Below are positions 4,733-57,367 of a DNA stretch of 64,000 nt, in pieces; position 1 is the stretch's first letter; each line of letters starts with the position of its first letter. The DNA comes from an uncultured Candidatus Saccharibacteria bacterium. GTDB lineage: Bacteria; Patescibacteriota; Saccharimonadia; Saccharimonadales; SZUA-47. The translations under genes and the position numbers were made by a program. Location of the stretch: the NCBI GenBank assembly GCA_964419675.1, contig CAYQPN010000002.1, forward strand, positions 3,073 to 67,072. Direction: 5' to 3'. The notes under the pieces are model-generated. The model was not told where the DNA came from. It searched no databases and saw nothing but the letters and a program-made list of their open reading frames with translations.

Positions 4733-4761
4733 ACAATTCTCTGTCTATTATTGAAACTTAG

Positions 4762-7617
4762 TTACCGAAGATTTACTACGTGTTCGTTTTGAAGTAAATC
4801 ATCCGGGCTTTTCGGCGTTGTATTGCTTTGTTGTTGATTTACTATAGGCGCTACAGGAGCCGTCTGCTGAACTTTTTGACTGCCAACTGGACTTTGTTCA
4901 TCGCCTGGCATTTGAACCGCTACAGGAGGCCGTTGAGCACCCTGAGAAGCTGGTTGGAGTGGTGTCCCTATTTGAGTACCTGATGGCTGGGATGGCACTG
5001 TTGCTGTACTAGGATTTTTGAATGGTGATGCAGGAGTTTTAAAAGTATTAGTTTGGCGTTTTTGCATCCAATCATCCAGGAAGCTTGAGCCACTACTTGG
5101 AGGCTTTTGTGCTCCTGGATTAGCATTAAAGTTCCTTCCAAAATCTGGACCTTGCTTTGCAGCAGTTACCGGCTCGTTCGTTCTTAATCGTTCAAATATT
5201 TCCTTTTCAACAATTGCTTTCGGCCTTCCGTGCTTTGCAGCAGATAACTGCTTTAGGGCACTTGCTAGCTCTTTGTTTGGGGTCCCCAAAGGTGGTAATC
5301 CGGTCATACTAAACGGCTGAGTTGGTATTCCACCAATTAACATTCTAACCACCGCATTATAGTTTGGAATACGCTGTAGATCGTCCATATCAAAAACTGG
5401 GGTAAACTGTTTGACTAAAAACTCTGCATCCGCGGTACCAACTCTGAAAGACACGATAGTACCAACATTTCCAAATACAGCGTCCCTTATTTCTTCCGTC
5501 AATTGAGTAGTGAACTGGTTAGCCACAATGAGGTTTAATCTATACTTTCTTGCTTCACTAAGAATTGTTGCGAAAGAATCCGTTGAGAAGTTCTGAAACT
5601 CATCCACATAAAGCGCAAAGTCTGTTCTCTCATCTTCGGGGATGCTGGCTCTACTCATAGCCGCGGCCTGGAATTTCATAACAAATATCATACCCAGTAG
5701 CTTAGAGTTGAGTTCACCGGTGCGTCCTTTGCTTAAATTCACGAGGAGAATTTTTTTGTTATCCATTATTTCACGCAGATTGAAAGAACTCTTTGTCTGG
5801 CCAATAATATTACGCATCATTTCATTACTTAAAAATGCACCAAACTTACTTACGAACCAACCAAGGACTTCACTTTTATGGTAGTCGCTGGTTTGCGCCA
5901 TCTCCTTATTCCAAAAATCTAACACTGTATGGTCGGTAACATGTTTTAACTTATCTTTTGCGTATTGGTTATCTGTGAACACTTTAGGTATGTCTATAAA
6001 TGTCGCTCCGACCGGATCAGCCATGATCGTTAATGCAGCGTTCCTAAACCAGTGCTCATAACGTGGTCCAATAATACCTTGATGTTGAGGGTCGTAAAGT
6101 TTATAGAGCATATTAATCGCTTCTTGTATCAGAAAGTCCTTTTGTTGCGGACTATCGAATTCAAACAAGTTTAAACCAAGAGGATAATCCATGTCAGCAG
6201 GACAAAAGTAAATCACATCTTCTGTTCGCTCTTTTGGAACCATAGCAAGCAACTTTTCAGCCGTATCACCGTGAGGATCAATAAACGCAAACCCCTCTCC
6301 GTTTAGCATGTCCTGTAGAGCCATGTTTTCTAGGAACGTTGATTTACCGGTTCCTGTCTGCCCAACTGCATAGACGTGACGTCGTCTATCATTAAGATCT
6401 AGATTAATCTTCTTTTTTGAACCTCTGAACACGTTATACCCCAACAATAGACCGCTGTCAGGTATATTTCTTGGGCCGTCGACCTGCTTGGAAGCCTGAC
6501 GCTCTAATTGCGTAGTTGGGATATTACTCTGAGTAGGAAAATGGAAAAGGGTTGCTAACTCTACCGAATTTAGGACTGATTTATTATTTTCAGGTGGGAA
6601 AAATCTTAAAATATAAGAAGTTATGAAGCTATCGATGTCTTTAGCGGCCGCAAACTTGAAACCATTCTTACCAGGAGAATCGTATAGCGCAAAAGTAGCG
6701 ACAAGATTATTTAAAATCGACTGAGCTTTCTGGGATAAATTCGAAGATGAAACAACACGGATTAACACCTCATATGCAGGATATTTAGCCTTTTCTTCAA
6801 TTGCATCAACTATAGACTGCTCTGTCCCAGATATTTGCTTGTCTTCATGTTTCTTCTCGTCTTTGTCCTCTGGCGGTTTTACAGGTGCGATCGCCAATTG
6901 TTTTACCCATGAGAATGCTAGGTCTGACTTTTTGCTCTTCTTCTTACCTTTTCTTTTCTTTTCAGCATATGCGAGCGCATTCTTACGCCATGTGCTTTGA
7001 GCCGGTCGAAGAAGAATCTGTATACCGGCACCGTCTTCTTTATCTAGCGTGGAAAGAGCATTAAGAATTGACTGCAGGGTATCTCGCTTAATGTCTTGAA
7101 AGGTTGCTATTGGATATGCCGAATCTTCTTTTAATGTTAGTTCCCCGCCCATCGTGGCGCTTGTCTTGCCGACAGGACTAAAAATATTGTGTTCAGCTAC
7201 TTCTTCTAGACGAGCCGACGGGTAGGCGCTCGTAATCGCCTGCTGGACCACATCTACTAAAGCGACAGGTACTGCAGTATAAAAATGGACAAAACCCCTT
7301 GTCCCAACTATCTCAAAGGCAAAGTGTCGTTGCCCATAATACTTACTCTTAAAACCCTTCTGAGTGGTGCTAGCGATAATGTTATAAAGAATCTGCGCTT
7401 TAGAGATGGTCTCATCCATAACATCGCGCTCGTCTCTGGACCCCACTTCAGTGTCATCGCTCTGTGGCGGAAGATGTATAAGCATGGGTACCATCTTTAA
7501 GCCACGCTCAAAATTCTTCTGTTCCCTGAAAACCTTTCGAGAATGATAATAACCAGTAAAGACACCAACTGCGACAATAAATAGTGCTACCACCAAAAAA
7601 ATTAATAATCCTGGCAT
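4762..7617 (-). CDS. Membrane-anchored P-loop ATPase of the TraG/VirD4/TraD coupling-protein or HerA-like type
   Basis: 951-aa ORF with an N-terminal TM helix. Walker A GQTGTGKST, FIDPHGD, Walker B-like LYVDEFQNF, NLIVANQ. About 150 aa of P/Q/S-rich C-terminal tail. Confidence 0.8.
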   Translation of the reverse strand: MPGLLIFLVVALFIVAVGVFTGYYHSRKVFREQKNFERGLKMVPMLIHLPPQSDDTEVGSRDERDVMDETISKAQILYNIIASTTQKGFKSKYYGQRHFAFEIVGTRGFVHFYTAVPVALVDVVQQAITSAYPSARLEEVAEHNIFSPVGKTSATMGGELTLKEDSAYPIATFQDIKRDTLQSILNALSTLDKEDGAGIQILLRPAQSTWRKNALAYAEKKRKGKKKSKKSDLAFSWVKQLAIAPVKPPEDKDEKKHEDKQISGTEQSIVDAIEEKAKYPAYEVLIRVVSSSNLSQKAQSILNNLVATFALYDSPGKNGFKFAAAKDIDSFITSYILRFFPPENNKSVLNSVELATLFHFPTQSNIPTTQLERQASKQVDGPRNIPDSGLLLGYNVFRGSKKKINLDLNDRRRHVYAVGQTGTGKSTFLENMALQDMLNGEGFAFIDPHGDTAEKLLAMVPKERTEDVIYFCPADMDYPLGLNLFEFDSPQQKDFLIQEAINMLYKLYDPQHQGIIGPRYEHWFRNAALTIMADPVGATFIDIPKVFTDNQYAKDKLKHVTDHTVLDFWNKEMAQTSDYHKSEVLGWFVSKFGAFLSNEMMRNIIGQTKSSFNLREIMDNKKILLVNLSKGRTGELNSKLLGMIFVMKFQAAAMSRASIPEDERTDFALYVDEFQNFSTDSFATILSEARKYRLNLIVANQFTTQLTEEIRDAVFGNVGTIVSFRVGTADAEFLVKQFTPVFDMDDLQRIPNYNAVVRMLIGGIPTQPFSMTGLPPLGTPNKELASALKQLSAAKHGRPKAIVEKEIFERLRTNEPVTAAKQGPDFGRNFNANPGAQKPPSSGSSFLDDWMQKRQTNTFKTPASPFKNPSTATVPSQPSGTQIGTPLQPASQGAQRPPVAVQMPGDEQSPVGSQKVQQTAPVAPIVNQQQSNTTPKSPDDLLQNEHVVNLR

Positions 7618-20042: not shown

Positions 20043-20049
20043 AAACTAG

Positions 20050-20078
20050 AACCGGTCCATCTGACCGGTTATTGTTTT
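20050..20078. terminator. Terminator after tRNA-Val
   Basis: Stem AACCGGTC / GACCGGTT with a 5-nt loop, followed by ATTGTTTT. Confidence 0.6.
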
Positions 20079-20106
20079 GGTTGATGATATATGTGAATCT
20101 TTCCCT

Positions 20107-20217
20107 AGGTGAAAGGCGAAGAAGCCCTGTGGGCTTTTGAGTTTTCCTTGCTTGGCCGAGGCAAATGCGGTTCCGCTCTTTGCCGAGCAAATATGGGCAA
20201 ATCCTTTGTTGCCCCCA
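20107..20217 (+). repeat. Partial tRNA-Val 3' copy interrupted in the T-loop by an 81-nt insert (element X copy)
   Basis: AGGTGAAAGG (20107-20116) equals tRNA positions 20010-20019. CAAATCCTTTGTTGCCCCCA (20198-20217) matches the tRNA T-arm/acceptor with 3 mismatches. The insert is homologous by eye to sequence beside tRNA-Arg. Confidence 0.55.
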
Positions 20218-25974: not shown

Positions 25975-26086
25975 GTGATAAGTGATATCAGAGGTAATTA
26001 TAGCAAAAGGAGTCCTGTTTTAGTCTCTTTCGAACCGAGTTCACAATTTTCTTGGCTGTCTTTGACTGGGTGTTTCAGTGTCTATC

Positions 26087-26270
26087 TGGTGGGCCCGACC
26101 CGACTGCGCTTTGCTTGCACGGTATCTTATTTCTTACATGCTAAGAGGTAGCATGACGAAATAAATACCTGTAGACCGGACGTTCGCTTTGCTCACTCTT
26201 CGCCAGTTCAACATCCAAGTCGGAGTCAGAGCAAGAAAAAAGCCCCATGCTTTGCATGAGACTTTTGTCT
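26087..26270 (-). repeat. tRNA-Asp downstream element ending in a second copy of the tRNA 3' end (element X-like)
   Basis: Terminator-like hairpin plus T6 directly after tRNA-Asp. About 150 nt later, TGGTGGGCCCGACC (26087-26100, plus strand) repeats the tRNA 3' end TGGCGGGCCCGACC (26271-26284) at 13 of 14 positions, including CCA. Confidence 0.5.
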
Positions 26271-28232: not shown

Positions 28233-28308
28233 TGGTGATCCGGGTGGGAGTCGAACCTACAACCTTTTCCTTAGGACGGAACTGCTCTATCCATTGAGCT
28301 ACCGGACC
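28233..28308 (-). tRNA. tRNA-Arg (anticodon CCT), CCA encoded
   Basis: Revcomp GGTCCGGTAGCTCAATGGATAGAGCAGTTCCGTCCTAAGGAAAAGGTTGTAGGTTCGACTCCCACCCGGATCACCA. Anticodon loop GTCCTAA. A51-C63 mismatch in the T-stem. Confidence 0.88.
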
Positions 28309-28451
28309 ACATATCACACTATCTATTATAAAGGTTCGACTCCGAGTCGGCCACAGTCTTACTTGCAACAAAGTCGCAAATCAGCTGTCGCCACACCTCG
28401 ACTCGGCCAAGGCCGGGTCTCCGGTCTTGCAAAAGTCCACAGGACTTTTTC
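28309..28451 (-). repeat. Structured element between a tRNA-Arg pseudo-copy and tRNA-Arg (element X copy)
   Basis: Starts (minus sense) with hairpin AAAAGTCC-TGTG-GGACTTTT. Contains CTTGGCCGAG, an 8-bp long-range helix CCGAGTCG/CGACTCGG, and a 12-nt inverted copy of the tRNA-Arg T-arm (AGGTTCGACTCC at 28332-28343, plus strand). Confidence 0.5.
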
Positions 28452-28508
28452 ACCTACAACCTTTTCCTTGAGGTGCCGAACTGCTCTATCCACTCAAGCT
28501 ACCGGACC
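28452..28508 (-). pseudogene. Truncated tRNA-Arg-like copy (5' two-thirds only)
   Basis: Revcomp GGTCCGGTAGCTTGAGTGGATAGAGCAGTTCGGCACCTCAAGGAAAAGGTTGTAGGT matches tRNA-Arg positions 1-54 at roughly 80-85% (hand count). It has a 2-nt longer anticodon loop and breaks at the T-loop, with no 3' half. Confidence 0.6.
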
Positions 28509-28537
28509 AATAGAGGTGATTATACACCTCCTACTTC

Positions 28538-29050
28538 TTATTTCTTGCGGGATTTTGCTAGAGTAAATTTTTCATTAACTGTTTCATATTCAAACATCTC
28601 ACTTTCACTAAACCAGTGAGCTATCTCTTCTACGGCTTCTTGTGAGTCTCCTGAAGCGTGGATAATATTTGGAGTTGCAATACCATGTGCATTAGCATGC
28701 TTGAAGCTTATGTGTGAATAGTCACCCCTAATTGTGCCTGGAAGTGCCGTTTTTGGCTCTGTCCCACCTACCATCTTGCGGACAACTTCTACCGCTTCAA
28801 CCCCCTCAAGTACATAAGCGATTACTGGTCCTTCGCTCATCATCTCTAGAGTTACGTCAAAGATTTCTTTGCCTCTTCTAGTTACCATCTTGCCGATATC
28901 TTCGTAGTGCTTAAAATAGTGATCATAATCAGGTAATAGCATTTTTGTTCCAACGATTTTTAGGCCGGCTCTTTCAAATCTTGTAAGAATTTCTCCTACA
29001 ATTCCTCTTTGAACTGCATCAGGTTTCAGAATAATTAGTGTTCGTTCCAT
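28538..29050 (-). CDS. ndk: Nucleoside-diphosphate kinase
   Basis: 170-aa ORF MERTLIILKPDAVQRGIVGEILTRFE...NIIHASGD. Confidence 0.93.
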   Translation of the reverse strand: MERTLIILKPDAVQRGIVGEILTRFERAGLKIVGTKMLLPDYDHYFKHYEDIGKMVTRRGKEIFDVTLEMMSEGPVIAYVLEGVEAVEVVRKMVGGTEPKTALPGTIRGDYSHISFKHANAHGIATPNIIHASGDSQEAVEEIAHWFSESEMFEYETVNEKFTLAKSRKK

Positions 29051-29124: not shown

Positions 29125-29160
29125 TACACATATTATACGCTATAGCGTATAATATGTGTA
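29125..29160. promoter_or_regulatory. Perfect 36-bp palindrome: symmetric divergent promoter and/or recombinase or operator site
   Basis: TACACATATTATACGCTATAGCGTATAATATGTGTA is its own reverse complement. Each strand reads TACACA, 17 nt, TATAAT. It lies between divergent ndk and xerC/D-like genes. Confidence 0.6.
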
Positions 29161-29243
29161 CTACGAATGAAGCGCAGTTTGTTCTATTGCCAATGATTAG
29201 TTTAAAATTTGTGTCGCACAATCTAGCAGATTTCGCTACAATT

Positions 29244-30170
29244 ATGAATATGCTTTTATCCAAAACTAAGACAGATTTTTTAGAATATTTAGAGATAGAA
29301 CAAAACCGTTCACAAAAAACTATTGAAAACTACGACCACTACCTTACTCGCCTACTTGACTACGCCGGCGAAATCAAAATTAGCGATATAGACCCCGAAT
29401 TAGTACGAAAATGGCGTCTTTGGCTAAACAGATTAGGTACAAACACCGCTGATGAGTTGCAAAAAAACACCCAAAACTACCACCTAATAGCACTCCGGGG
29501 ATTTTTAAAGTTTTGTGCCAAGCGCGGTATTAATGCTATGCCTGCAGATAAGATTGAACTAGCCAAAAGCAACCGAAAACAGGTGACATTTCTCAACACA
29601 GAGGAGTTAGAGCGACTATTTAATGTCCCAAAGCTTGAAACAATAAATGGTTTACGCGATAGGGCTATTTTAGAACTTCTCTTTTCAAGCGGATTACGTG
29701 TTTCTGAGTTAGTAAATCTTGACCGTGAACACATTAATCTTAAACGCAAAGAGTTTATGGTGCGTGGAAAAGGACAGAAAGATCGACCCATATTTATTAG
29801 CGACACGTCTGTTTGGTGGCTAACCCAATATCTTGAAAAGAGAAAAGATAACAGCCGACCATTATTCATCCGCTACAGTGGCTCTAAACAGGTCAATATC
29901 AGCGGAAATTATTACCGCTTAACTGCACGTAGCGTTCAACGACTGGTGGCGCGATATGCCCTGCTTGCGGGGATTACCAAACATGTCAGTCCGCATACAC
30001 TAAGACACAGCTTTGCTACTGATCTGCTCATGAATGGGGCAGACTTACGTTCAGTCCAGGCAATGCTTGGTCACAGTAACATTTCAACAACCCAAATCTA
30101 CACCCACGTCACCGACCCGCATCTAAAAGCGATACACCAGAAATTCCACCGCAAACCAGAAAGTAGCTAA
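29244..30170 (+). CDS. Tyrosine recombinase, XerC/XerD family
   Basis: ORF 29154-30170. The likely start is ATG 29244 (MNMLLSKTKTDFLEYLEIEQNRSQKTIENY, SAM-like N-domain). The catalytic region has RVSELVNL, HTLRHSFAT and GHSNISTTQIYTH. Confidence 0.9.
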   Translation: MNMLLSKTKTDFLEYLEIEQNRSQKTIENYDHYLTRLLDYAGEIKISDIDPELVRKWRLWLNRLGTNTADELQKNTQNYHLIALRGFLKFCAKRGINAMPADKIELAKSNRKQVTFLNTEELERLFNVPKLETINGLRDRAILELLFSSGLRVSELVNLDREHINLKRKEFMVRGKGQKDRPIFISDTSVWWLTQYLEKRKDNSRPLFIRYSGSKQVNISGNYYRLTARSVQRLVARYALLAGITKHVSPHTLRHSFATDLLMNGADLRSVQAMLGHSNISTTQIYTHVTDPHLKAIHQKFHRKPESS

Positions 30171-45085: not shown

Positions 45086-46078
45086 TTAGGCTGCCTTCTT
45101 TTTATTGCGTCGCCCTGCTTTTGCCTGTGCTAACCCGGGTGTGCCACTGGGTAGACTGTCACCGGGCTGTACGCCATAACCAAGGTCTTTCACTGGCCTC
45201 AAATGTCGTTTTACTTTGCTGGGGTTGGTTGGATCTGGCTCGTCTCCACTATTTCTACGTCTCACTAGTAAGATAAGCCCGCCTAGCACTGAGACTAAAA
45301 CTGTTCCGCCAAGCCATTTTTTTAACTCAGGGCTAATACCGCCAGAGCTACTCCCATGACCTTCAACCATACCTCCAGATGTAGGCGAGGAACTTTCTGG
45401 GCCTGTTGTAGTGCCATCGTTTGTAGTCGTGGTTCCTAATACTGTAGTAGTCGTCGACTCTATAGTAGTGCTAGTAGTTGGCGACGTGGTAGTGGTACTA
45501 GTAGTGGTAGTGACGGGGGCGGTGGTAGTTGTGACTTTTTGTGGTTTTGTGGTTGTTGGTGCTGGTGGCTGTGTAGTTGTTGGTGGGGGCGATGTTGTTG
45601 GAGGTGGGGGTGGGTTAGGGCCACACACAGGTTCTCCATTATGATAACGACCTTGATAATACCAACCAATAAAGTATGGGTCACAAATCTCATCAGCATG
45701 TGCAGTACTTACCCCACCTGCAAACGACGCTAAAAGTAGTGCAAAGGCACCAGCTGCTTTAGCCTTGTTTTCAGATAAAAGTTCTATAAGTCTATCCCAG
45801 GCCCCTACTTCTTGCATCTGTGCAATAACTTCTGCGTTAAAACCACTTGTCAGCTCCTCAATCGTAGCAATTTCTCCCAAAGCAAAGGTTGAATCAACAG
45901 GCCCGGTCTGCCCTAGTTCCTCAAGCCACTGTCCATATTCCATACCAAATCTTTCATTCTGAGCTGTAAGTCTAAGATCTTGAGCAACGGTGTCAAAAGG
46001 GTTCGGTGGCATGCCAGCAATAGTTAGCCCCTGGATTTCCATGGTTATGCTGTCTGGTGAGGTTAAAGTTGAGCTCAT
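45086..46078 (-). CDS. P/T-rich membrane protein, tandem paralog A
   Basis: 330-aa ORF with SD AAGGA 8 nt before the ATG. About 110-aa N-terminal soluble domain, a hydrophobic segment ending AHA, the Cys motif DEICDPYFIGWYYQGRYHNGEPVCGP, a P/T-rich stalk, a second TM and a basic tail. Confidence 0.75.
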   Translation of the reverse strand: MSSTLTSPDSITMEIQGLTIAGMPPNPFDTVAQDLRLTAQNERFGMEYGQWLEELGQTGPVDSTFALGEIATIEELTSGFNAEVIAQMQEVGAWDRLIELLSENKAKAAGAFALLLASFAGGVSTAHADEICDPYFIGWYYQGRYHNGEPVCGPNPPPPPTTSPPPTTTQPPAPTTTKPQKVTTTTAPVTTTTSTTTTSPTTSTTIESTTTTVLGTTTTNDGTTTGPESSSPTSGGMVEGHGSSSGGISPELKKWLGGTVLVSVLGGLILLVRRRNSGDEPDPTNPSKVKRHLRPVKDLGYGVQPGDSLPSGTPGLAQAKAGRRNKKKAA

Positions 46079-46165
46079 CTTTAGTTTCCTTTGTTGGGGG
46101 TTATTTAATAATAATCGCCCTATATCCTTATTTATACCAGTGGCTTATCTGTTTGTAAACTTAAA
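45571..46165. repeat. 595-bp perfect direct repeat, copy 1
   Basis: Identical by line-by-line comparison to 46391-46985 (offset 820 bp). Covers the promoter, the 5' UTR and the first ~170 codons. Confidence 0.95.
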
Positions 46166-46898
46166 AGCGAGGACGCAAATAGGGGTTTCTTTCTGTGTTA
46201 ACCACAAACTCATCACCTTGCCATACCAAATCTGCATAAACCCTCTCTCTTACGGGCATTACCTCTAGATCTGTCAATATGGTCGTGGTAGTAGTAGATG
46301 GTGTCGTGTCTGTTGGAGTCGTCGGGGGTGGTGTGGTTATTGGTGGTTTGGTTGTTGGAGGCGTAATGGTGGGTGGCTTAGTTGTCGGGGGTGTAGTTGT
46401 TGGTGGGGGCGATGTTGTTGGAGGTGGGGGTGGGTTAGGGCCACACACAGGTTCTCCATTATGATAACGACCTTGATAATACCAACCAATAAAGTATGGG
46501 TCACAAATCTCATCAGCATGTGCAGTACTTACCCCACCTGCAAACGACGCTAAAAGTAGTGCAAAGGCACCAGCTGCTTTAGCCTTGTTTTCAGATAAAA
46601 GTTCTATAAGTCTATCCCAGGCCCCTACTTCTTGCATCTGTGCAATAACTTCTGCGTTAAAACCACTTGTCAGCTCCTCAATCGTAGCAATTTCTCCCAA
46701 AGCAAAGGTTGAATCAACAGGCCCGGTCTGCCCTAGTTCCTCAAGCCACTGTCCATATTCCATACCAAATCTTTCATTCTGAGCTGTAAGTCTAAGATCT
46801 TGAGCAACGGTGTCAAAAGGGTTCGGTGGCATGCCAGCAATAGTTAGCCCCTGGATTTCCATGGTTATGCTGTCTGGTGAGGTTAAAGTTGAGCTCAT
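46161..46898 (-). CDS. P/T-rich protein, tandem paralog B (no C-terminal TM)
   Basis: 245-aa ORF. Its first ~170 aa are identical to paralog A. The PTTKPP-type repeats diverge and the unique 40-aa C-terminus lacks a TM. Confidence 0.7.
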   Translation of the reverse strand: MSSTLTSPDSITMEIQGLTIAGMPPNPFDTVAQDLRLTAQNERFGMEYGQWLEELGQTGPVDSTFALGEIATIEELTSGFNAEVIAQMQEVGAWDRLIELLSENKAKAAGAFALLLASFAGGVSTAHADEICDPYFIGWYYQGRYHNGEPVCGPNPPPPPTTSPPPTTTPPTTKPPTITPPTTKPPITTPPPTTPTDTTPSTTTTTILTDLEVMPVRERVYADLVWQGDEFVVNTERNPYLRPRF

Positions 46899-55180: not shown

Positions 55181-57367
55181 TCAAAGTTCTTCTAGCGCTT
55201 GGTCGGCTTCGCTCAATGGCTCGACCCCCAAATTGAATACTTCTGAGGTAGAAGATACCAGTACATCGCGTGGTTTTGAACCATCTGCCTGGCCTACAAT
55301 TCCCTGTTCTTCCATCATGTCTATCAGACGTGATGCCCTGCCGTAACCTATCCTTAGACGGCGTTGTAGCAAGCTTGTACTAGCTTTTCGGTTGTCTACC
55401 ACTACTTGTACGGCATCCTTCCATAAGTCATCGTCTGAGTCCATCGGCGCATGATCTGGCACTATCCCGCCCTTACCGTTAAGTTGTACTGGTTGGCTAA
55501 CAACCTCATCATCATATTGTGGTGGACGCTGGGTACGAAGAAAATCGTTAACTCTTACTATTTCTTCATTGGTAATCAAAGCACCCTGCACACGAATAGG
55601 TTTTGGCATTTCGGTTACCTTGAATAACATATCACCCATTCCAAGTAGCTTCTCTGCACCCATAGAATCAATAATGATATTGCTGTTAACTTGACCAGCT
55701 ACAGTAAATGCGATTCTAGCCGGTACGTTGGCCTTGATTAGTCCGGTAATTACGTCTGCGCTTGGCCTCTGAGTTGCAAGCACCAAATGTATTCCGGCTG
55801 CGCGAGCTTTTTGAGCTATTCTAACTACCAAAGCCTCTACATCCCGGGCAGCCATCATCATCAAATCGGCTAGCTCATCAATGACAATAACAATGTATGG
55901 CATTGAGTCATTATCGGGTAGACTATTGTATTCTTCTATGTTGCGTTTGCTTGCTTCAGCAAATGTGCGCAGACGCCTTTCCATTTCTGACACTGCCCAT
56001 TTTAGCGCACTAATACATTTTTCTGGCTCCGTAATAACGGGAGTAAGAAGATGCGGGATATCTTTATAAGAGGTTAACTCAACCTGCTTAGGGTCAACCA
56101 AAATTAGCTTTAAGTCTGCTGGGCTATTTTTGTATAAAAGGCTTGTTAGCAGCGTGTTAATCATCACTGACTTACCCGACCCAGTTTGACCAGCAATCAA
56201 AAGGTGAGGCATTTTGTCTAGTGAAGCCAATACGGGCTGACCAGCTATGTCCCTACCCACTACAAAACTTAAATGTTCTGTATCATTAACCCAACGTTTA
56301 TCTTCGATTACGCCTGCAAGTCGTACTGTTGCGGCCTTGATGTTTGGCACTTCTATTCCAACAGCTCTCTTGCCTGGTATAGGTGCTTCAATCCTGATAC
56401 TTTGTGCCGCTAAGTTTAGCGATAGTTCTTTATCCAAGGCTGAAATCTTGCTTAATTTAGTCCCGGCCGGTGGTTTTAGTGTAAATTGCGTAACCCTTGG
56501 CCCAACATTAGCCCCTTCCATTTCTACTTCAATATTAAAGTTAGAAAATGTATCTTTGATAATCTCTGCATTAGTATTTACATCACCAGGGTCTGCCTTA
56601 TCCTGCTTTTTTAACAATAAATCTACAGTAGGTAGTTGCCAATTTGGGTCTCTGGCTTCAGTTAGAGCCTCGTGATTTTCTTCAGGCGATAATTTAGGCG
56701 CAAAAGTGTTTTTTAGCGTACTTCTGCCGGAATTATGCTCAACAGGAACTCCTTCATTCAGCTGAAAACCTGGAGCGCCTTCAGCTTTTTCTTTCAGCGT
56801 GCTAAGGTCACTATCTTCGTCCGTTGATTTACGTTGAAATGGCTTAAGAAAAATGTATAGCGGTATTGAAAAAGTCCAGCATGTTGCAAGTAATGTAAGT
56901 ACAAGAAACAGAATGCTGGCTGGCAATTGATCCAGCGCGGCCAGCACGGCACCGCCTACTATTCTACCGGCACCACCACCTTCACCGCCAGCAGTAAGAC
57001 CCGCTGCTGACTTGCCAACAAAAACTACATGAAGCCAGGCTGATAACGCTAACAATAGGCTTCCCATACTAAAAATTCTGCTAATCGGAAGATTGTGTTC
57101 CTCGGACTTTAGTTTGTGGACTCCCCAATAAGCAAGTGCCACTGGTGATAAATAGGCAGCCAGCCCTAAAACAGACTCAACAATATCAAACATGCCAACT
57201 GGCAAGCTCCCACCCGTACCAAAACCACCCAATAAAAGAAAAACCGCTGCCACAATCATTAACACTCCGCCGGCCTGTCTAACAAACATGTTAGGCTCGC
57301 GCGGAACTTGATTTACTTTCTTCTTAGAAGTTTGTCTTTTGTTTGATCGTCTTTTTCTTTTTGACAT
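55181..57367 (-). CDS. ftsK: DNA translocase FtsK/SpoIIIE
   Basis: 728-aa ORF with N-terminal TM helices, LLIAGQTGSGKSV, IVIDELADLM and a C-terminal gamma wHTH domain. Confidence 0.93.
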   Translation of the reverse strand: MSKRKRRSNKRQTSKKKVNQVPREPNMFVRQAGGVLMIVAAVFLLLGGFGTGGSLPVGMFDIVESVLGLAAYLSPVALAYWGVHKLKSEEHNLPISRIFSMGSLLLALSAWLHVVFVGKSAAGLTAGGEGGGAGRIVGGAVLAALDQLPASILFLVLTLLATCWTFSIPLYIFLKPFQRKSTDEDSDLSTLKEKAEGAPGFQLNEGVPVEHNSGRSTLKNTFAPKLSPEENHEALTEARDPNWQLPTVDLLLKKQDKADPGDVNTNAEIIKDTFSNFNIEVEMEGANVGPRVTQFTLKPPAGTKLSKISALDKELSLNLAAQSIRIEAPIPGKRAVGIEVPNIKAATVRLAGVIEDKRWVNDTEHLSFVVGRDIAGQPVLASLDKMPHLLIAGQTGSGKSVMINTLLTSLLYKNSPADLKLILVDPKQVELTSYKDIPHLLTPVITEPEKCISALKWAVSEMERRLRTFAEASKRNIEEYNSLPDNDSMPYIVIVIDELADLMMMAARDVEALVVRIAQKARAAGIHLVLATQRPSADVITGLIKANVPARIAFTVAGQVNSNIIIDSMGAEKLLGMGDMLFKVTEMPKPIRVQGALITNEEIVRVNDFLRTQRPPQYDDEVVSQPVQLNGKGGIVPDHAPMDSDDDLWKDAVQVVVDNRKASTSLLQRRLRIGYGRASRLIDMMEEQGIVGQADGSKPRDVLVSSTSEVFNLGVEPLSEADQALEEL

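Follow-up and report, generated by a model that had tools for sequence, protein, structure and literature searches.

A plausible gene-less scar of T-loop insertion at a tRNA-Arg(CCT) gene in a Saccharibacteria genome

Upstream of an intact tRNA-Arg(CCT) gene in a Saccharibacteria (CPR) genome lies an incomplete second copy of the same gene, separated from it by hairpin-rich DNA. How did this arrangement arise, and does the DNA between the two copies have a role in making the tRNA? We analysed a 64,000-nt stretch of the genome, referred to here as the window; a class A RNase P RNA (Rfam) marks the host as a bacterium. The intact gene occupies 28308..28233 on the minus strand (Aragorn; 55.9 bits in Rfam), and its T stem carries one mismatch, A51-C63 (GTAGG/CCCAC). 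The partial copy (the stub), a hairpin and end motif of a module that we call X, a nested helix and an inverted copy of the T arm all lie 5' of this gene on the same minus strand, and each element that a sequence-only reading had placed there is present.

The stub (28452..28508, minus strand) is a 57-nt copy of tRNA-Arg nt 1-54. Its identity to the gene had been put at 80-85%, which is slightly low: 50 of the 57 alignment columns are identical (~88%), with exact blocks of 12, 15 and 18 nt. The seven differences are four substitutions and three insertions of one base each. One of these insertions falls in the D loop; the other two make the anticodon loop 2 nt longer in the copy, as had been noted. 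The stub ends ...GTAGGT, exactly after T54, and hence breaks after the 5' T stem as described. The direct repeat of nt 1-54 that flanks the inserted DNA begins at tRNA nt 1 (or -1) and terminates in the T loop, and its two copies lie 200 nt apart. We found no 3' half that would complete the stub's cloverleaf in the same orientation, only the inverted 12-nt T-arm copy after the stub, and neither Aragorn nor Rfam detected a second tRNA at the locus.

The break is followed by a 50-nt block, the X-core (28402..28451, minus strand), which lies between T54 of the stub and a TCGA that matches T-loop nt 55-58. With slashes marking the boundaries, the junction reads GTAGG-T/X-core/TCGA/GGTGTGG; the full T-loop core TTCGACT-CCCAC is absent from it, and the core is not shared by both junctions. 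The Arg X-core consists, in order, of a hairpin AAAAAGTCC-TGT-GGACTTTT, a small CCGG/CCGG hairpin and the X-end motif CTTGGCCGAG (28411..28402, minus strand). The terminator-like hairpin as a whole, AAAAAGTCC-TGT-GGACTTTTT, spans 28452..28428 on the minus strand. Next comes a palindrome-rich filler (28344..28401, minus strand) in the form of a long hairpin closed by CCGAGTCG (28406..28399) and CGACTCGG (28349..28342), so that both the X-type hairpin and the nested helix of the sequence-only reading were recovered. Within the filler, the X-end motif recurs in inverted orientation (TGGCCGAC) alongside short T-loop-like pieces (TCGA, CGACTC), and the insertion contains a snap-back palindrome, CGACTC-C-GAGTCG. 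The filler folds more stably than shuffled sequence in both senses (z = -4.4 sense, -4.9 antisense).

At 28343..28332 (minus strand) lies the perfect 12-nt inverted T-arm copy, GGAGTCGAACCT, which matches tRNA nt 51-62 exactly as their reverse complement. Between the arms lie the previously described 73 nt, and the pairing extends weakly to 28350 (19 nt at 84%). A 12-nt inverted match arose in 5 of 20,000 shuffles of the 143-nt leader (p ~2.5e-4), in agreement with the earlier judgement that chance is an unlikely source. Apart from these two sites, the window has no exact copy of the T-arm 12-mer, and a window search allowing at most one mismatch returned 3 matches against 0.12 expected. The remaining stretch is a new upstream spacer, TTATAATAGATAGTGTGATATGT (28309..28331, minus strand), with a TATAAT box at 28330..28325. 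The non-tRNA DNA of the insertion amounts to only ~140 nt, is unrelated to the local flanks, and has no coding capacity: no ORF with a family match, and no integrase or other mobile-element gene, was found between the repeats.

To place these features in time, we compared the locus with empty sites on six related contigs from two relative lineages (NDK 84-85% identical). L083-85 are three contigs from one sample (NDK 85% identical), and L086-89 come from other samples (84%). A single tRNA-Arg, with neither stub nor X, is found on all three contigs of the first group and on three of four of the second. Gene order in L083-89 is Xer-type integrase, ndk, hairpin, one tRNA-Arg, bPH and PpiC, and the gap from ndk to bPH measures 345 nt in the window versus 135-145 nt in these relatives. 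In the window, ndk is followed by a hairpin (GAGGTG-TATAAT-CACCTC; 28513..28530, minus strand) and then TATT, a hairpin and T-rich layout also seen in L083-L089, which marks the ancestral 5' junction of the tRNA-Arg gene. The stub sits directly behind it, where L083 and L086 have their tRNA, and the flank 3' of the intact gene is homologous to that of L083 (ATTAGA...TAGCGTAA). Because the ancestral 5' flank has stayed with the stub and the ancestral 3' flank with the intact gene, we conclude that ~200 nt were inserted in the T loop of tRNA-Arg, consisting of X, the TATAAT box and a new copy of nt 1-54. Hence nt 1-54 of the intact gene belong to the inserted block, and nt 55-76 with the downstream flank are ancestral. 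The event is best placed within this Saccharibacteria lineage, because stub and intact gene have T3 in common (paired with A70), whereas L083 has C3-G70.

Two further features belong to this neighbourhood. The TATAAT in the loop of the ndk hairpin (28524..28519) is a possible promoter for the stub. The Xer-type integrase at 29154-30170 lies outside the repeats and is a conserved neighbour in relatives that have no insertion.

The same comparison bears on a simpler account, in which the stub would be an artefact of assembly or what remains of a tandem duplicate of tRNA-Arg after decay; we consider this account highly improbable. Two same-strand copies 200 nt apart are what a tandem pair would look like, and the source is a metagenome-derived contig. 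Our exact-protein look-up with bPH recovered one contig, L081 (Logan, 927 nt), which breaks off exactly at tRNA nt 1, and the Arg copy of X rests on one assembly; look-ups for the same locus in other samples with NDK of the window, and with a spurious ORF over X, had none on record. Yet the spacer between the copies resembles neither local flank and the relatives have one gene, which rules out the tandem-duplication model. The seven differences and the unique intervening sequence are also unlike the collapse or expansion of a repeat during assembly. The sequence-only reading would have yielded to a decayed tandem pair if relatives had carried the same pair and if no X-like sequence occurred at other tRNAs; what we found instead were relatives with one tRNA-Arg and X-like sequence at another tRNA.

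This second X-core (43 nt; 20118..20160, plus strand) lies downstream of tRNA-Val(GAC), a locus that forms a parallel case to tRNA-Arg. To its left is AGGTGAAAGG (20107-20116), which corresponds to the variable loop and 5' T stem of tRNA-Val. To its right lies a filler (20161..20217, plus strand) in which (G)CAAAT pieces of the T loop recur and the X-end motif appears a second time (CTTTGCCGAG, 20178-87). At the end of the filler stands CAAATCCTTTGTTGCCCCCA (20198-20217), the ancestral tRNA-Val 3' end, now displaced and 27 nt away from the TGT stop. The X-core therefore splits a 3' remnant of tRNA-Val (nt 45-76) at T54/T55, the same position as in tRNA-Arg. The gene itself has a new 3' end with its own terminator, and the X-split fragment follows. 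The distance from tRNA-Val to the TGT stop is 202 nt in the window versus 24 nt in the relative L099, which is without X. The Val copy of X is identical in an independent ENA contig (L098), which counts against the assembly-artefact account.

The X junctions read GTAGG-T/GAAAAAG in Arg and AAAGG-C/GAAGAAG in Val. Over the hairpin block the two copies are identical at 19 of 22 positions, and their local alignment scores 29, versus 15.5 +/- 2.3 in shuffles (1 of 2000 reached 29). An exact collinear 10-mer lies beyond the hairpin block in both copies, and overall the two share four short collinear blocks with unrelated sequence in between. We know of two X copies, both in the 64-kb window of one genome. 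Searches with nhmmer of the window and ~650 kb of related loci returned the Arg and Val X-cores only, and motif searches likewise found no X in the related loci. There was no blastn match in phage and plasmid records, and in viral and metagenome contigs exact and degenerate X patterns yielded nothing beyond chance matches in coding regions (L082, L095-97). A scan of viral contigs for the 5' part of tRNA-Arg as a possible attP was negative. We rejected two candidate relatives: a match of L070 to the Val copy is an unrelated terminator hairpin, and a T-loop insertion in L015 has one 11-mer in common with the Val copy in a different structural context.

Partial tRNA copies and flips of tRNA genes are common in the fetched loci of the clade. 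Copies broken in the T loop stand beside intact genes in L015 (Asp; a perfect 58-nt 5' copy), L005 (Arg), L052-58 (Glu), and L048 and L092 (Asp), and clade stubs as a whole are broken in the T, anticodon or D loop. Hairpin insertions occur in the T loops of the stubs in L005 (28 nt) and L015 (83 nt), and their sequence is unrelated to X. L027 has a direct copy of nt 1-17 of its tRNA-Arg and, behind it, nt 12-29 in inverted form, an arrangement that resembles the signature of a fold-back. The orientation of tRNA-Arg changed at least 5 times among 32 genomes, and single tRNA genes in neighbouring genomes are frequently flipped, relocated or replaced. The idea that recombination was aimed at the T loop has therefore held up as the best reading, because the site is empty in relatives, X also lies at the T loop of tRNA-Val, and T-loop breaks recur elsewhere in Saccharibacteria.

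We put at about even the chance that the region is a gene-less scar of a T-loop insertion into the ancestral tRNA-Arg(CCT), with "5'-half" polarity. The ~200-nt block would begin with X, whose hairpin could read as a terminator in both directions, continue with palindromic filler, and close with the TATAAT box followed by tRNA nt 1-54, copied anew. Fused to ancestral nt 55-76, the fresh copy would form the working gene, with transcription from the inserted promoter. What had been the first two-thirds of the ancestral gene would be left as a dead stub behind the old promoter, running into the X hairpin. Such an outcome would fit a site-specific, integrase-type event, with an element that was later reduced to X or was always miniature and mobilised in trans; the X-core is a module that this scar has in common with the one at tRNA-Val. 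The extent of the repeat, from nt 1 to the T loop, fits an element-borne replacement copy and not a slippage duplication.

Several observations count against the scar. No integrase or other gene lies between the repeats, and no larger relative of the element was found in related loci or in the phage/plasmid, viral and metagenome searches. In addition, the product of a conservative tyrosine recombinase should have the whole T-loop overlap at both junctions, and the stub has T54, the X-core and TCGA. An insertion bounded by T54/T55 is not the product of such a recombinase; therefore a second step, in which the X-core was inserted or copied, would have to be added, or else the TCGA and CAAAT pieces may be coincidental.

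If the X-core is given the leading part, it could be a miniature non-autonomous element of ~45-50 nt that inserts between T54 and T55 and survives only where the T arm is dispensable or duplicated; the partial duplications would come from separate events or from repair. We regard this as possible but somewhat unlikely. The T54/T55 junction is common to two different tRNA sequences, and because the T-loop bases after the X-core match the bases of each tRNA itself (TCGA in Arg, (G)CAAAT in Val), independent insertion is indicated rather than copying with flanks. The X-core is rich in hairpins, like the ends of HUH-mobilised elements, and the T-loop hairpin insertions of the L005 and L015 stubs would be comparable events, although unrelated to X in sequence. 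Against such an element, X is known in two copies, and none is present in relatives. Its ends (GAAAAAGTCC... and ...CTTGGCCGAG) are not mutual inverted repeats, T54 and T55 flank it without a target-site duplication, and a Pfam scan of 27 window ORFs returned no transposase, RAYT or HUH/Y1_Tnp gene. The right junction is moreover ambiguous, because the T-loop pieces are just 4-5 nt long and TCGA is palindromic. A broader version makes the X-core a miniature mobile module that inserts precisely at T54/T55 in the T loops of tRNA genes with the help of an enzyme acting in trans, within a clade-wide process that splits, replaces and flips single tRNA genes; we hold this to be doubtful.

The mosaic structure of the Arg copy raises a different prospect, an accident of replication or repair. 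The T arm is prone to hairpins, and a fork that stalled or a break that occurred there would have been mended by microhomology-mediated template switching, with pieces copied from elsewhere, among them X at tRNA-Val and the opposite strand of the T arm, before the tRNA was copied again from nt 1. We think this unlikely. The four collinear blocks that the Arg copy shares with the Val copy amid unrelated sequence, the inverted T-arm copy and the snap-back palindrome are what such switching would leave behind, and the direct and inverted copies of its own tRNA-Arg in L027 suggest a similar process. Two adjacent 11-12-nt matches to X also lie in a coding region at 56867-56893. Template switching leaves unexplained, however, why the duplication starts exactly at tRNA nt 1 and why the inserted DNA brings a well-placed TATAAT (Arg) or a terminator (Val). 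Identical T54/T55 junctions in two tRNAs would need homology-guided copying, and a donor for most of X was not found.

Returning to the scar, we considered what the inserted DNA may do for the gene. The TATAAT box at 28330..28325, between the inverted T arm and tRNA-Arg, ends 16 nt upstream of the tRNA, and its spacing matches that at other tRNA genes of the window (16 nt for tRNA-Val, 24 nt for tRNA-Thr). A simple -35/-10 promoter scan reported no pair at this position; judged by eye, the box is the putative promoter of the working tRNA-Arg gene. Since it lies downstream of the inverted copy, the main precursor probably does not contain the inverted T arm. This weighs against the proposal, made from the sequence earlier, that the leader keeps the precursor's T arm sequestered, which looks unlikely. 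We infer that recombination at the T loop left the inverted T arm and the remaining T-loop-like pieces behind as debris, that they are not a regulator, and that the scar probably has no function.

A functional alternative would have the stub, X and inverted T arm act as a leader that controls maturation of tRNA-Arg by pairing with the T arm, or the stub act as a tRNA-like small RNA; we judge both very unlikely. In the minimum-energy fold of a 276-nt read-through RNA (z = -4.4), the 12-bp helix between leader and T arm forms together with one between the stub and the 3' acceptor, and the short U run of the X terminator (UUUU, then G) makes read-through conceivable. The stub's seven differences also fall in two mutually complementary patches (CTTGAG, CTCAAG), which counts in favour of a leader or small RNA. 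Besides the position of the TATAAT box, stub plus hairpin fold no better than shuffled sequence (z = -0.9), and the stub/X arrangement is missing in all relatives examined, which argues against a conserved regulatory design. X does not have a conserved RNA structure, because the pairing partners of its shared motif differ between the Arg and Val copies. At gathering threshold, Rfam reported tRNAs only at a meaningful level across the whole window; up to E 10, both X regions gave nothing but tRNAs, the rest having E >= 0.38, far below gathering thresholds. Two other ideas were set aside: (i) the 12-nt arms as an inversion switch, since by our reasoning the flipped segment gives no foldable tRNA and its acceptor strands mismatch; and (ii) a plus-strand reading of X, either as the 3' end of a tRNA with a terminator or as the 5' beginning of a tRNA-Leu-like gene, which is suggestive by eye and unsupported by Aragorn or Rfam.

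We then compared the scar with known systems. Small palindromic repeats include REP/BIME sequences with RAYT transposases, MITEs and IS200/IS605-derived PATEs. X resembles them in being short, rich in hairpins, present in more than one copy and predicted to act as a terminator. It differs in having two copies only, no terminal inverted repeats or target duplication, and no RAYT or TnpA among the 27 window ORFs; these families are not known to prefer the interior of T loops as a target. Archaeal split and intron-containing tRNA genes, such as the split tRNAs of Nanoarchaeum and those with non-canonical BHB introns, are likewise interrupted at a loop with a complementary stretch (here 12 nt) nearby. 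The present case differs in its bacterial host, in a stub without a direct 3' partner, in the adjoining intact gene, and in a 12-nt complement that is the T arm itself and not a leader. The CIMEs of the Streptococcus thermophilus CIME/ICESt system are reportedly cis-mobilisable, att-flanked remnants of ICEs without an integrase of their own. Like them, the Arg scar has no genes, lies at a tRNA-type site with att-like repeats on both sides, and might be mobilised in trans. CIMEs are kilobases long with both att cores intact, whereas the Arg scar is small; we know of no helper element for it.

Integrated elements usually leave partial tRNA genes as their footprint (PMC9897764), and for those that target tRNA genes, PMC8371274 cites Williams 2002 for the T loop as a sublocation. 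The scar is like such prophages, ICEs and islands in having a tRNA direct repeat bounded by the T loop and a gene end, a rebuilt intact gene, and a site that is empty in relatives, and the tRNA-Val locus has their classical polarity. Unlike them, it holds ~140 nt of non-tRNA DNA with neither integrase nor cargo; the Arg locus duplicates the 5' part and not the 3' part, and the stub does not have the full T-loop core. "5'-half" integrations that place the rebuilt gene on an element promoter exist but are rare (PMC8371274, which cites Cossu 2017 and Williams 2002); they are made by pTN3-like integrases of Thermococcales and occur in a few bacteria, where the 5' half of a tRNA gene serves as attB. 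As in pTN3-like integrations, a displaced 5' fragment (the stub) keeps the original upstream flank, as seen in L083 and L086, and the rebuilt Arg gene would be read from an inserted, here putative, promoter. Those elements, in contrast, are kilobase plasmids or viruses whose integrase promoter drives the tRNA, whereas the insertion described here is gene-less, sits in a CPR bacterium and breaks the tRNA in its T loop.

A partial tRNA gene next to an intact one is a standard footprint of mobile elements, and in its basics the phenomenon is therefore known. Less ordinary are (i) a tiny, gene-less scar of rare polarity in which inserted DNA supplies the 5' part and promoter; (ii) a 43-50-nt hairpin module that remnants of two different tRNAs have at an identical T-loop position; and (iii) their occurrence in a CPR bacterium with a reduced genome. 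In practice, tRNA stubs of this kind can mislead tRNA annotation and break assemblies. If the X-core is indeed mobile, it would be a new T-loop-specific element and a handle on the turnover of tRNA gene sets in Patescibacteria. If both the module and the clade-wide process are real, tRNA genes in these reduced genomes would not be passive sites of integration but would undergo continuing turnover driven by enzymes.

On the minus strand, the DNA between ndk (28538-29050, stop at 28538; Pfam) and the intact tRNA-Arg(CCT) gene (28308..28233; Aragorn; Rfam 55.9 bits) is a series of tRNA-derived and hairpin-forming pieces. After a GAGGTG-TATAAT-CACCTC hairpin followed by TATT comes a 57-nt copy of tRNA nt 1-54, hereafter the stub (28508..28452), which ends ...GTAGGT after T54. 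The stub runs directly into a hairpin, AAAAAGTCC-TGT-GGACTTTT, followed by a small CCGG/CCGG hairpin, the motif CTTGGCCGAG (28411..28402; the X-end motif), a long hairpin in which CCGAGTCG and CGACTCGG form the closing helix, an inverted T arm, GGAGTCGAACCT (28343..28332), that is the exact reverse complement of tRNA nt 51-62, and the spacer TTATAATAGATAGTGTGATATGT. The sequence-only reading had described this layout correctly, all features lying on the minus strand, but had put stub identity at 80-85%; we find 50 of 57 columns identical (about 88%), with four substitutions and three single-base insertions. It had also judged the 12-nt inverted repeat, taken together with the direct partial duplication, very unlikely by chance; a 12-nt inverted match arose in 5 of 20,000 leader shuffles. 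The observation is real and statistically sound. The seven stub differences cluster in two mutually complementary patches (D arm, CTTGAG; anticodon arm, CTCAAG); this pairing is absent from the minimum-energy fold. The T stem of the working tRNA-Arg (28245-28260, minus strand) has an A51-C63 mismatch (GTAGG/CCCAC), and by eye T stems are perfectly paired in the type-A relatives L010, L012, L027, and L041 and in L083 (GTAAG/CTTAC). Its Rfam score is the lowest among the five tRNAs of the window.

The best matches of the NDK protein come from Saccharibacteria (TM7, Patescibacteria) genomes, and gene order is conserved as ndk, tRNA-Arg(CCT), bPH-domain protein, PpiC-type isomerase. Two relative lineages (contigs L083-85 and L086-89), with NDK 85% and 84% identical to that of the window, carry the same Xer-type integrase, ndk, hairpin, one tRNA-Arg, and bPH, with an ndk-to-bPH gap of 135-145 nt versus 345 nt in the window. 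The stub occupies the position of the relatives' tRNA (hairpin, T-rich tetramer, GGyCCGG), and the 3' flank of the intact tRNA-Arg is that of L083 (ATTAGA...TAGCGTAA...ATATG); hence, the extra 200 nt represent an insertion within the ancestral tRNA-Arg. The stub is what was the 5' two-thirds of that gene, and in the working gene nt 1-54 are a new copy, fused to nt 55-76 of the old one. Both copies begin GGTCCGG and have in common T3, which pairs with A70, versus C3-G70 in L083, so the duplication arose inside the window lineage. A simple tandem duplication is ruled out because the inter-copy DNA is unlike either local flank, and the relatives, with a single tRNA-Arg each, do not show the conserved, decayed tandem pair that would have told against the sequence-only reading. 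The sole other contig found with an identical bPH gene (L081, from Logan, SRR7369924) begins exactly at tRNA-Arg nt 1, equivalent to position 28308 of the window; this start could be a de Bruijn graph branch from strains with and without the insertion, or just low coverage.

The window has two exact occurrences of CTTGGCCGAG and no more, the second at 20151-20160, some 110 nt downstream from tRNA-Val(GAC). Alignment of the two regions (BLAST, MAFFT) revealed four collinear blocks in common, chiefly a hairpin block of 22 nt with 19 identities and the exact 10-mer; the local alignment score of 29, against 15.5 +/- 2.3 for shuffles, was reached by 1 of 2,000 shuffles. We refer to the shared segment as the X-core (Arg copy, 50 nt, 28451..28402, minus; Val copy, 43 nt, 20118-20160, plus), and an nhmmer search of the window and of about 650 kb of related loci gave no further copy. 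Each X-core is preceded by the 5' T-stem strand plus one base (GTAGG-T in Arg, AAAGG-C in Val) and followed by the matching T-loop bases (TCGA, nt 55-58, in Arg; (G)CAAAT, nt 56-60, in Val), beyond which lies palindromic filler with a second copy of the X-end motif. A 728-aa ORF holds, at 56861-56893 (plus), TGAAAAAGTCC and TGTTGCAAGTAA 4 nt apart, matching the Arg X region in the same order, there 62 nt apart; these matches could be coincidental or could hint at templated filler.

At the tRNA-Val locus (20043-20217, plus), the gene's own terminator (20050-20070, plus) is followed by a fragment of tRNA-Val nt 45-76 whose T loop is split by X-core and filler. The filler has three (G)CAAAT repeats; the CAAATCCTTTGTTGCCCCCA at its end, which copies tRNA-Val nt 56-76, is 27 nt from the stop of TGT. 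In the relative L099 (TGT 85% identical), tRNA-Val lies 24 nt from the TGT stop with nothing else between, so here the ancestral 3' end has been displaced and the intact tRNA-Val has gained a new one, with its own terminator. An independent ENA contig (L098) matches the window throughout this locus, differing only by three mismatches at the contig edge. The tRNA-Val locus has the classical polarity, with X inside the T loop of a displaced remnant; elements that integrate at tRNA genes almost always replace the 3' part.

We compared the X regions with known RNAs and elements; at E up to 10, they matched no Rfam family. They fold stably (Arg z = -4.4 sense and -4.9 antisense; Val -3.3 sense), and the stub with its hairpin is no more stable than shuffled sequence (z = -0.9). 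The conserved X motif has different pairing partners in the two copies, so X has no conserved structure. The leader had also been proposed to pair with the T arm of the precursor and sequester it, an idea that finds no support here and that we rate as improbable: the 12-bp helix is predicted only when transcription reads through, the inverted copy is upstream of the likely promoter, and no relative examined has the arrangement. A TATAAT box in the inserted DNA ends 16 nt upstream of the intact tRNA-Arg; the corresponding distances are 16 nt for tRNA-Val and 24 nt for tRNA-Thr. The insertion contains no ORF with a family match, and among 27 window ORFs searched with Pfam there was no transposase, HUH protein, or phage gene except the conserved Xer-type integrase. 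Neither X relatives nor a candidate attP turned up in phage and plasmid records, viral contigs, or metagenome contigs. Two adjacent ORFs without Pfam match (45086-46078 and 46161-46898) hold a perfect 300-nt direct repeat (45571-45870 and 46391-46690, 820 nt apart).

Partial beside intact tRNA genes are the usual trace of tRNA-integrating elements (PMC9897764). Replacement of the 5' half, with the gene rebuilt under an element promoter, is known but rare, in pTN3-like elements of archaea and a few bacterial cases (PMC8371274). The tRNA-Arg locus has this same rare polarity, as its repeat runs from nt 1 to the T loop and the insert brought a TATAAT box. For this reason we interpret 28309-28508 as a 5'-half-type integration, either its gene-less remnant or a form that is naturally miniature, a reading to which we assign about an even chance; transcription of the stub would start at the old promoter and be halted at the X hairpin. 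Three observations count against integration: (i) no integrase lies between the repeats; (ii) the T-loop core at the stub junction is incomplete; and (iii) the X-core sits between T54 and T55, a product that a conservative recombinase would not give. These keep two other explanations alive: that the X-core is itself a small T-loop-specific mobile module, which we regard as unlikely though worth serious consideration, and that the scar was left by template switching during repair of a T-arm break, which seems quite doubtful. The earlier proposal of recombination targeted at the T loop is supported by the partial tRNA copies and by the X-core at the same T-loop position in Arg and Val.

Across 102 tRNA contexts in the fetched Saccharibacteria loci, partial copies lie near several intact tRNA genes, usually broken in the T loop. 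The tRNA-Asp gene of locus L015 (5614-5920) has been hit by several events: a perfect 58-nt 5' copy lies 132 nt upstream and resumes past an 83-nt T-loop insertion, and a 14-nt 3'-end copy lies 29 nt downstream. The perfect copy suggests that at least one event was recent. Copies of 3' parts accompany tRNA-Arg in L005 (T loop holding a 28-nt hairpin insertion), tRNA-Glu in L052-58 (107-153 nt further on), and tRNA-Asp in L048, L092, L010, and the window. In the window (26084-26270, minus), the tRNA-Asp terminator is followed after about 170 nt by the 3'-end copy TCGGGTCGGGCCCACCA; the L010 unit (5840-6007) has the layout and the patches GAACTGGCGAAG and GCAAGCAA in common with it, and the L092 unit (4740-4941), in opposite orientation, contains a decayed tRNA-Thr-like piece. 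Locus L027 carries a direct copy of nt 1-17, then an inverted copy of nt 12-29. Two sequence types of tRNA-Arg(CCT) meet in L042 (1554-1700): one (GTCCCCATAG...) is intact, and 23 nt away is nt 1-40 of the other (GGTCCGGTAGCTCAAGG...), a 5' half broken in the anticodon loop; the pair looks like a gene-replacement footprint. On a rough NJ tree of 32 NDK sequences (loci L005-L079), the orientation of tRNA-Arg(CCT) relative to ndk changed at least five times; tRNA-Asp has opposite orientations in the window and its closest relatives, and in locus L093 tRNA-Val(GAC) lies elsewhere, beside tRNA-Asp. Inversion and relocation of single tRNA genes are frequent in this clade. About 115 nt separate a conserved promoter-like GCTATAATCTACCC motif from tRNA-Val in L099 (5185-5340), versus 8 nt in the window; tRNA genes also undergo insertions or deletions on their 5' side.

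Clearly, the tRNA genes of this Saccharibacteria group are hot spots of recombination. The kind of footprint is already known, and the tRNA-Arg scar is a new variant of it; the interest comes chiefly from the X-core at an identical T-loop position in remnants of two tRNAs, and from the high turnover of tRNA genes in these reduced Saccharibacteria genomes.
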